A DNA stretch of 18,279 nt from the IMG/VR virus record IMGVR_UViG_2695420624_000002, positions 1-18,279 of that record; one strand, given 5' to 3'. Source of the stretch: a virus (taxonomy: Duplodnaviria > Heunggongvirae > Uroviricota > Caudoviricetes). The first letter of the stretch is position 1; each line of letters opens with the position of its first letter. Below, one piece after another: positions 7,228-7,824 of the stretch. The notes beneath the pieces were generated by a model. The model made no database searches. It was not told the origin of the DNA and saw nothing but the letters and a program-made list of their open reading frames with translations. The position numbers were made by a program, and so were the translations under genes.

Positions 7228-7395
7228 TCAAGCATTATGCAGGCTGTTTCTTTTTATCACCGGCCACAGCAATACCATAATGCCGCAGACCAGCACCCCA
7301 TCCGCCAGCACCGACATGATTCTGCTGGTGAAATCCACCATCACCACCAGAAACAGCAGGAGTGCAGCCACAGTCAGGCGCAGTTTTACCGTCAC
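7228..7395 (-). CDS. Possible small hydrophobic membrane protein (55 aa, GTG start overlapping the TerB-like stop)
   Basis: My own translation of the minus strand: VTVKLRLTVAALLLFLVVMVDFTSRIMSVLADGVLVCGIMVLLWPVIKRNSLHNA, two predicted hydrophobic helices; GTG overlaps the upstream TGA (cTGTGAcgg). Below the ORF-track length cutoff; no RBS checked. Confidence 0.25.
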   Translation of the reverse strand: MTVKLRLTVAALLLFLVVMVDFTSRIMSVLADGVLVCGIMVLLWPVIKRNSLHNA

Positions 7396-7824
7396 AGGTA
7401 ATTCTCCAGACGAAGACCCAGAACACCGGCAATCTCTTCCAGCACCTTGCGCTCTTCCGGCTCAATTTCGCCGTCTGCCTCCGCAATGGCCACCGCCACA
7501 TCCAGCACATCTTCCGCTTCACGCGTATCGTGTTTCACATCCTCGATCTCACGTAACGCCGCACGACGACCAGTTTTAAAGTTCGTATCCAGCTGACCGA
7601 TAATGGTTGCGCTAATCGCATTAATTTCTGACGTAAACGCGTACAGCGCAGGCTGATTACGCAGTACCTGTTCGATCTTCGCTTTCTAGGAAGCCTCACA
7701 TTCACCATCTGCACAGGCCACCAGGTATGCGGCGTTAATCACCACCTGTGCCAGATCGCGTTTTTCAAACTTTTTAATTTCCGTTGCCGCTCTGCGGGCT
7801 TTTTTTACCAAAAATACCAAACAT
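7392..7824 (-). pseudogene. TerB-like (tellurite-resistance TerB domain family) gene disrupted by a +1 frameshift in an A7 tract and an in-frame TAG
   Basis: My own translation: ATG 7824 with RBS AAGGAA gives MFGIFGKKSPQSGNGN*; removing one A from the A7 tract (plus T7 at 7800..7806) restores MFGIFGKKARRAATEIKKFEKRDLAQVVINAAYLVACADGECEAS, then TAG at 7688..7686, then ...KAKIEQVLRNQPALYAF...VAVAIAEADGEIEPEERKVLEEIAGVLGLRLENYL*. The two ADGE-containing helices are typical of TerB-like domains (family assignment is inference). Confidence 0.5.

Follow-up and report, generated by a model that had tools for sequence, protein, structure and literature searches.

A putative tciA pseudogene with two independent lesions in the stx-equivalent slot of a lambdoid prophage

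The tciA–tciB locus and its surroundings

The DNA analyzed here (the window) is a stretch of 18,279 nt from the Caudoviricetes record IMGVR_UViG_2695420624_000002. On its minus strand lie two overlapping genes, designated tciA and tciB after their annotation in phage JLK-2012 (Table 1). The ancestral frame of tciA comprises 143 codons from its ATG, and its start reads ATG TTT GGT ATT TTT GGT AAA AAA A|GC. The run of seven adenines (A7) at this point shifts the frame after codon 8, and the ATG-initiated reading closes at a TAA after 16 codons. In the frame displaced by one base (+1), the sequence is open from 7823 to 7395, where it reaches the TGA at 7394..7392, and its sole interruption is an amber codon (TAG). 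The downstream gene, tciB, is intact and preceded by its own Shine-Dalgarno sequence; its GTG start overlaps the tciA stop codon in the sequence GTGA. Direct reading of the window upheld all coordinates given for the two genes in the original prediction, which had described a TerB-like frame with a good ribosome-binding site and ATG, broken once by an A7 shift after codon 8 and again by a TAG, and a GTG-initiated hydrophobic ORF of 55 residues overlapping its stop.

The minus-strand order around the cassette is Q, a pR'-like promoter, a hairpin, three tRNA genes, tciA, tciB, a match to the STnc100 small RNA, a second hairpin, and nanS-p. The promoter and the first hairpin look like a lambdoid pR'/tR' pair, as judged by pattern matching, and the transcript between them would be ~70 nt. 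From the general behavior of lambdoid late operons, the cassette would be expected to be transcribed on the Q-dependent late transcript. In Stx lambdoid phages, stx1AB or stx2AB occupies the same slot directly upstream of nanS-p/yjhS, again on a Q-dependent late transcript. In the Stx1a phage Stx1_14040, stx1AB is followed directly by a yjhS/nanS-p gene with 96% identity to that of the window, and the same arrangement of stx1 next to the esterase gene is described in a preprint (10.64898/2026.05.13.724894). On this basis, "stx-equivalent slot" is a fair description of the tciA–tciB site, in keeping with the earlier placement of such a slot between the tRNA trio and nanS-p. The cargo is unrelated: the original prediction saw no Stx-like gene here, and the RefSeq annotation of two loci that match the window in this region agrees, listing none between Q and nanS-p. 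The same preprint names TerB among the conserved neighbors of prophage small RNAs and relates STnc100 to the prophage small RNA PasD, which is located upstream of a sialate esterase gene (10.64898/2026.05.13.724894). Elsewhere in the window, a match to the sok antitoxin RNA falls at a place where, in the closest complete genome, RefSeq annotates the toxin gene hokD.

The nearest described counterpart of the locus is in phage JLK-2012 (JQ347801), from the O55:H7 strain DEC5E, where the order is likewise Q, three tRNA genes, tciA, tciB, and yjhS/nanS-p, followed by S, R, and Rz. Its tciA has the same ATG, the same N-terminal DNA, and the same overlap between the tciA stop and the tciB start. Unlike the window copy, the gene is intact, with a run of six adenines (A6) and a sense codon at position 46, and its product is 96.5% identical to the repaired window protein. 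The tRNA genes also differ, being Asn, Thr, and Gly in JLK-2012 and Ile, Arg, and Arg in the window.

Table 1. Features of the tciA–tciB locus and of the surrounding prophage, in window coordinates
Feature	Coordinates	Strand	Basis or remark
nleB effector gene	981..1		runs off the window
Tail-fibre gene	2748..1429		
lom	3466..2807		
Tail-tip protein J, C-terminal remnant	4803..3499		left of breakpoint
nanS-p/yjhS sialate O-acetylesterase	5063..6913	−	Pfam DUF1737, SASA, DUF6645; downstream border of slot
Terminator-like hairpin	7026..7008	−	downstream of STnc100 match
STnc100/PasD-like sRNA match	7051..7223	−	Rfam STnc100, 100.8 bits (gathering score 47); 3' of tciB, before nanS-p
tciB (DUF3927), intact	7228..7395	−	55 aa, two hydrophobic segments; GTG start 7395..7393
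tciA, probable pseudogene (TerB family)	7392..7824	−	ancestral ATG 7824 to TGA 7394..7392; Pfam, PHROG, RefSeq
Shine-Dalgarno of tciB, GGAG	7404..7407	−	8 nt 5' of GTG; sequence reading
Amber TAG at codon 46	7686..7688	−	in place of invariant Glu46 (GAG), first DGxxxxxE motif
TAA closing the ATG-initiated frame	7774..7776	−	after 16 codons (16-residue peptide)
A7 run, frameshift after codon 8	7800..7806	−	one A more than intact A6 alleles
TTG used by RefSeq as CDS start	7818..7820	−	four bases past ATG
tciA start ATG	7824..7822	−	sequence reading
Shine-Dalgarno of tciA, AAGGA	7833..7837	−	8 nt 5' of ATG, 12 nt 5' of TTG; sequence reading
Poly-G run	7907..7912	−	G6; 82 nt upstream of tciA ATG
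Three tRNAs: Ile (CAU), Arg (UCG), Arg (UCU)	7994..8243	−	ARAGORN, Rfam; PGAP calls the first tRNA-Ile
GC hairpin with T7 run, tR'-like	8390..8364	−	direct reading; pattern match only; ~50 nt downstream of promoter-like site
pR'-like promoter TTGCAA-17-TATATT	8470..8442	−	consensus scan; pattern match only; overlaps end of Q
Antiterminator Q	8454..9149	−	Pfam Phage_antiter_Q, 310 bits
sok antitoxin RNA	11162..11336	−	Rfam, 113.5 bits
IS110-family transposase ORF, 425 aa	14378..13101	−	early region; also in 2015C-4136CT1

Family assignment of TciA and TciB

The proposed TerB-like identity of tciA was examined by profile searches with a repaired 143-aa translation, obtained by removing one A from the A7 run and reading the TAG as GAG, and each search supported it. 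The repaired protein matched Pfam TerB (PF05099) with 45.7 bits, above the Pfam gathering score of 24.4. It aligned over positions 1-143 of 143 with PHROG 632 ("tellurite resistance", moron category; E = 2e-68) and over residues 15-137 with the solved structure of Klebsiella TerB (PDB 2JXU; E = 4e-7). It also carries the hallmarks of PHROG 632, namely the full length, an MFGxFxKK N-terminus, and two DGxxxxxE motifs. The tciB ORF matched Pfam DUF3927 (60.4 bits, cut-off 25) and PHROG 1470 ("TciB-like"); its product has a GRAVY score of 1.39 and corresponds to the RefSeq protein WP_000216649.1. These TerB and DUF3927 matches are far above chance, and the locus shows the arrangement of a TciA–TciB cassette, with a DUF3927 two-helix protein overlapping the tciA stop. 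The uninterrupted domain-coding frame of the TerB family is broken in the window by the A7 frameshift and by the TAG at codon 46; judged on its reading frame, the window copy belongs to the family as a pseudogene rather than as a functional member.

TerB homologues of TciA length occur in 129 phage records, which span the P1/P7/D6 phage-plasmids, Erwinia and Salmonella jumbo phages, N4-like phages, and lambdoid phages. Among the closest known counterparts are P1 tciA and P7 terB, which encode single-domain TerB proteins of ~143 aa with 41% and 51% full-length identity, respectively. Each precedes a small DUF3927/TciB-like gene, and both are non-essential accessory genes near tRNA genes; in P1, tciA, tciB, and tciC were non-essential in a CRISPRi screen (PMC10695390). 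The gene context is different in these phage-plasmid genomes, and P1 has tciC as a third gene. The pairing recurs in a P1/P7-like contig and an Erwinia jumbo phage, where a small hydrophobic ORF lies directly 3' of the TerB gene; a Vibrio N4-like phage showed no such neighbor beside its TerB gene. TciA shares PF05099 with the TerB of the terZABCDE operon, represented by the Klebsiella structure, but the likeness is one of sequence, which is distant, and the partners of the tellurite-resistance operon are absent here. RefSeq annotation of the matching loci, which cover window positions 1..15950, lists none of terZ, A, C, D, or E, and a Pfam search of the larger window ORFs gave no ter-family match. 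Membership of an anti-phage defense system was considered and rejected, as the PADLOC models gave nothing usable (a single sub-threshold match, E = 0.006, 13.7 bits). A literature search found no experimental work on the function of phage TciA or TciB, including P1 tciA/tciB/tciC and P7 terB, and the designation "tellurite/colicin resistance, inhibition of cell division" derives solely from homology. Intact TciA would be a soluble TerB-fold protein that cooperates with the two-helix TciB at the inner membrane.

Ancestral state, start codon, and distribution of the two lesions

Intact alleles provide the reference against which the two lesions can be read. Those with flanks identical to the window (L007, L008, L012-L015, and phage JLK-2012) have A6 and the same ATG, and alleles with the window's flanking DNA but A6, found in several genomes and in JLK-2012, read MFGIFGKKARR. 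The intact allele of an O145:H28 prophage uses the same ATG and reads MFGIFKKKTRR, and homologues with as little as 49% identity retain the MFGxFxKK N-terminus. At codon 46, intact alleles carry GAG. In an alignment of 14 diverse TciA homologues, Glu46 is invariant, as are D39, D117, G118, and E124; D39/E46 belong to the first DGxxxxxE motif and D117/E124 to the second. A6 and GAG, which had been put forward as possible ancestral states, are on this comparison exactly that.

The locus is not new to public annotation. RefSeq/PGAP lists a pseudo "tellurite resistance TerB family protein" with an internal stop and, after it, an intact "DUF3927 family protein"; hundreds of E. coli genomes carry this pseudogene label. 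The RefSeq CDS (for example, that of L001) starts at the TTG, with the result that the frameshift is absent from the annotation notes. Because RefSeq picks this start, A7/GAG alleles appear as intact 142-aa proteins in O157:H7: strain 86-24 (L022) is assigned WP_001303509.1 from the TTG, and in a sister 86-24 assembly (L008) the A6 allele encodes 143 aa from the ATG. If the TTG at 7820 were the true start, A7 would be harmless and the TAG alone would inactivate tciA. Such a single-lesion gene would account for the RefSeq CDS with "internal stop" as its only listed defect and for the 142-aa annotations, and only residues 2-6 of the protein would differ. We nevertheless consider it unlikely. The N-terminus obtained from the TTG (MVFLVKK) does not match the conserved MFGxFxKK read from the ATG, and the Shine-Dalgarno sequence is 8 nt from the ATG versus 12 nt from the TTG, so the ATG would capture initiating ribosomes; moreover, the window copy is dead under either start. 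Because of this spacing and the conserved N-terminus, we take translation to begin at the ATG and count A7 as a genuine lesion. A7 alone may not be a complete knock-out, as RefSeq treats the A7/GAG alleles as functional from the TTG.

The distribution of both lesions was determined in 5,426 complete E. coli genomes, using queries of 76-77 nt in which a single difference lowers identity below 99%. The A7 77-mer had exact matches in 554 records and the TAG 77-mer in 306, and these records come from several serotypes, laboratories, and sequencing platforms. The corresponding A6 76-mer with the same flanks was found in 8 records, 6 of which belong to a separate, intact lineage and are not revertants. 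The GAG 77-mer with the same flanks was found in 2 records, and that of the intact O145-type allele in 378. All four combinations of A run and codon 46 were present among the loci compared: the intact A6/GAG, A7/GAG (L006, L022), A6/TAG (L016, L017), and A7/TAG (the window, L001, L002, L004, L005, L010). Since all four exist, the order of the two lesions is not inferable; an order of A7 before TAG, first assumed from the A7/GAG alleles, was dropped on account of the A6/TAG alleles. Individual genomes can hold more than one copy. E2865 has one TAG copy and one GAG copy, and PV15-279 carries two A7/TAG copies, apparently alongside an intact 145-aa paralogue (protein P0006). The protein database contains further variants, including alleles on the A7 background in which the TAG has become TGG (Trp; P0004, P0012), two-residue insertions beside codon 46 (P0006, P0013), other frameshifts in the A-rich start of tciA (P0034, P0015), and a TciA–TciB fusion of 197 aa (P0011).

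Considering these data, we judge it highly probable that the locus is a tciA–tciB accessory ("moron") cassette of a lambdoid prophage in which two independent lesions have made tciA a pseudogene. Ribosomes initiating at the ancestral ATG would be shifted by the additional A in the A7 run and end at the TAA after 16 codons. Those reaching the TerB frame, by the weak TTG start or by slippage, would halt at amber codon 46, leaving some two thirds of the TerB domain untranslated, the second DGxxxxxE motif with it. Some product may still arise through low-level read-through of the amber codon or through frame correction. Suppression of the amber codon by a neighboring tRNA was considered and rejected: the anticodons of the three adjacent tRNAs are CAU, UCG, and UCU, and none is a suppressor.

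Homopolymer variation, prophage decay, and significance

Two homopolymers at the locus differ in length between assemblies. The poly-G run upstream of tciA is G6 in the window and G5, G7, G8, G11, G12, or G13 in related loci; an interrupted G5TG takes its place in seven of eight intact alleles examined, the exception being L008 with G12. L016 and L017, two mutually identical loci from separate laboratories (A6/TAG, G7), differ from L002 (A7/TAG, G8) over 1,150 nt only in these two homopolymers. Likewise, the wild-type (L022) and mutant (L008) assemblies of strain 86-24 differ at the locus only by A7/A6 and G11/G12. This pair was dropped as a test of slippage, as homopolymer-only differences fit assembly error equally well. 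The A and G runs thus seem either to change length or to be miscalled in some long-read assemblies, and the range of the poly-G run in particular could be real hypermutability or long-read homopolymer miscalling.

The original prediction left three options for A7: a sequencing artefact, true decay, or reversible phase variation. Decay fits best. For reversible switching, the run-length part of the proposal stood to the extent that the run appears to change length occasionally, but rescue of this copy by such a change is blocked by the TAG. A switch of tciA through the A run, perhaps together with the poly-G run, would be in keeping with the presence of A6 and A7 on otherwise identical backgrounds (L016/L017 versus L002), the G5 to G13 range, and the further frameshifts of P0034 and P0015. 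It is, however, highly unlikely here. The exact-match records are split 8 to 554 between A6 and A7, with slippage not separable from assembly error; this is unlike a balanced switch, and 6 of the 8 A6 records are from the different, intact lineage. A run of seven bases is also short for high-frequency slippage in E. coli. Because the TAG blocks expression at any run length and fixes the OFF state, switching of the A run is irrelevant in this copy.

The artefact option, in which A7, the TAG, or both would be sequencing or assembly errors and the gene really intact, gains something from the imperfect reliability of homopolymer calls at the locus, as in the 86-24 assemblies and in the closest relative, which has G5 where the window has G6. 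The allele counts in the 5,426 complete genomes lead us to exclude it, and we give it almost no credence: the exact A7 and TAG 77-mers recur in 554 and 306 independent complete-genome records, respectively, and errors of the homopolymer type would not produce a T-for-G substitution. Equally negligible is the prospect that the fragments are functional, as an N-terminal peptide of ~44 aa or a 48-aa C-terminal product from a GTG at 7538, for although an in-frame 48-codon GTG ORF (7538..7392) exists and the 48-residue family PHROG 3920 matches exactly this stretch, no Shine-Dalgarno sequence was seen before the GTG, PHROG 3920 is most likely a collection of the same kind of truncated gene calls, and the product would be half a TerB domain without one of the two conserved acidic motifs.

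Decay of tciA as an accessory gene sits within a wider picture. In a search with the whole window, the closest complete genome was 2015C-4136CT1, reported as 100% identical to window positions 4563..18279 (though with the poly-G difference noted above); the identity ends at 4563, within the holin gene. Beyond this breakpoint lie the remnant of tail-tip protein J, lom, the tail-fibre gene, and nleB; deletion has removed the lysis, terminase, and head genes along with most of those for the tail. The early region holds an IS110-family transposase ORF that is shared with 2015C-4136CT1. The prophage itself is decayed, and a dead accessory gene fits that picture. The spread of tciA alleles in the protein database is what relaxed constraint on a gene would be expected to leave.

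The event is of a known and already annotated kind, the decay of a prophage accessory gene; what is new here is limited to the masking of the frameshift by the start codon chosen in RefSeq and to the length variation of two homopolymers at the locus. A broader reading would be that tciA has been lost repeatedly in EHEC/EPEC prophages, through frameshifts (A7 and others near the N-terminus), the amber codon, and TciA–TciB fusions, with tciB left intact. If this loss were non-neutral, it would point to selection in lysogens against TciA or for TciB alone, or alternatively to a low-frequency contingency switch that combines the A run with the G5-G13 run lying 82 nt 5' of the ATG and acts on a cassette in the toxin slot; we consider this very unlikely. 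In itself, the finding that a common phage accessory gene lies dead in the toxin slot of a non-Stx lambdoid prophage carries little weight. The broken and intact tciA alleles that occur naturally would nonetheless serve as ready-made controls for a functional study of the cassette.
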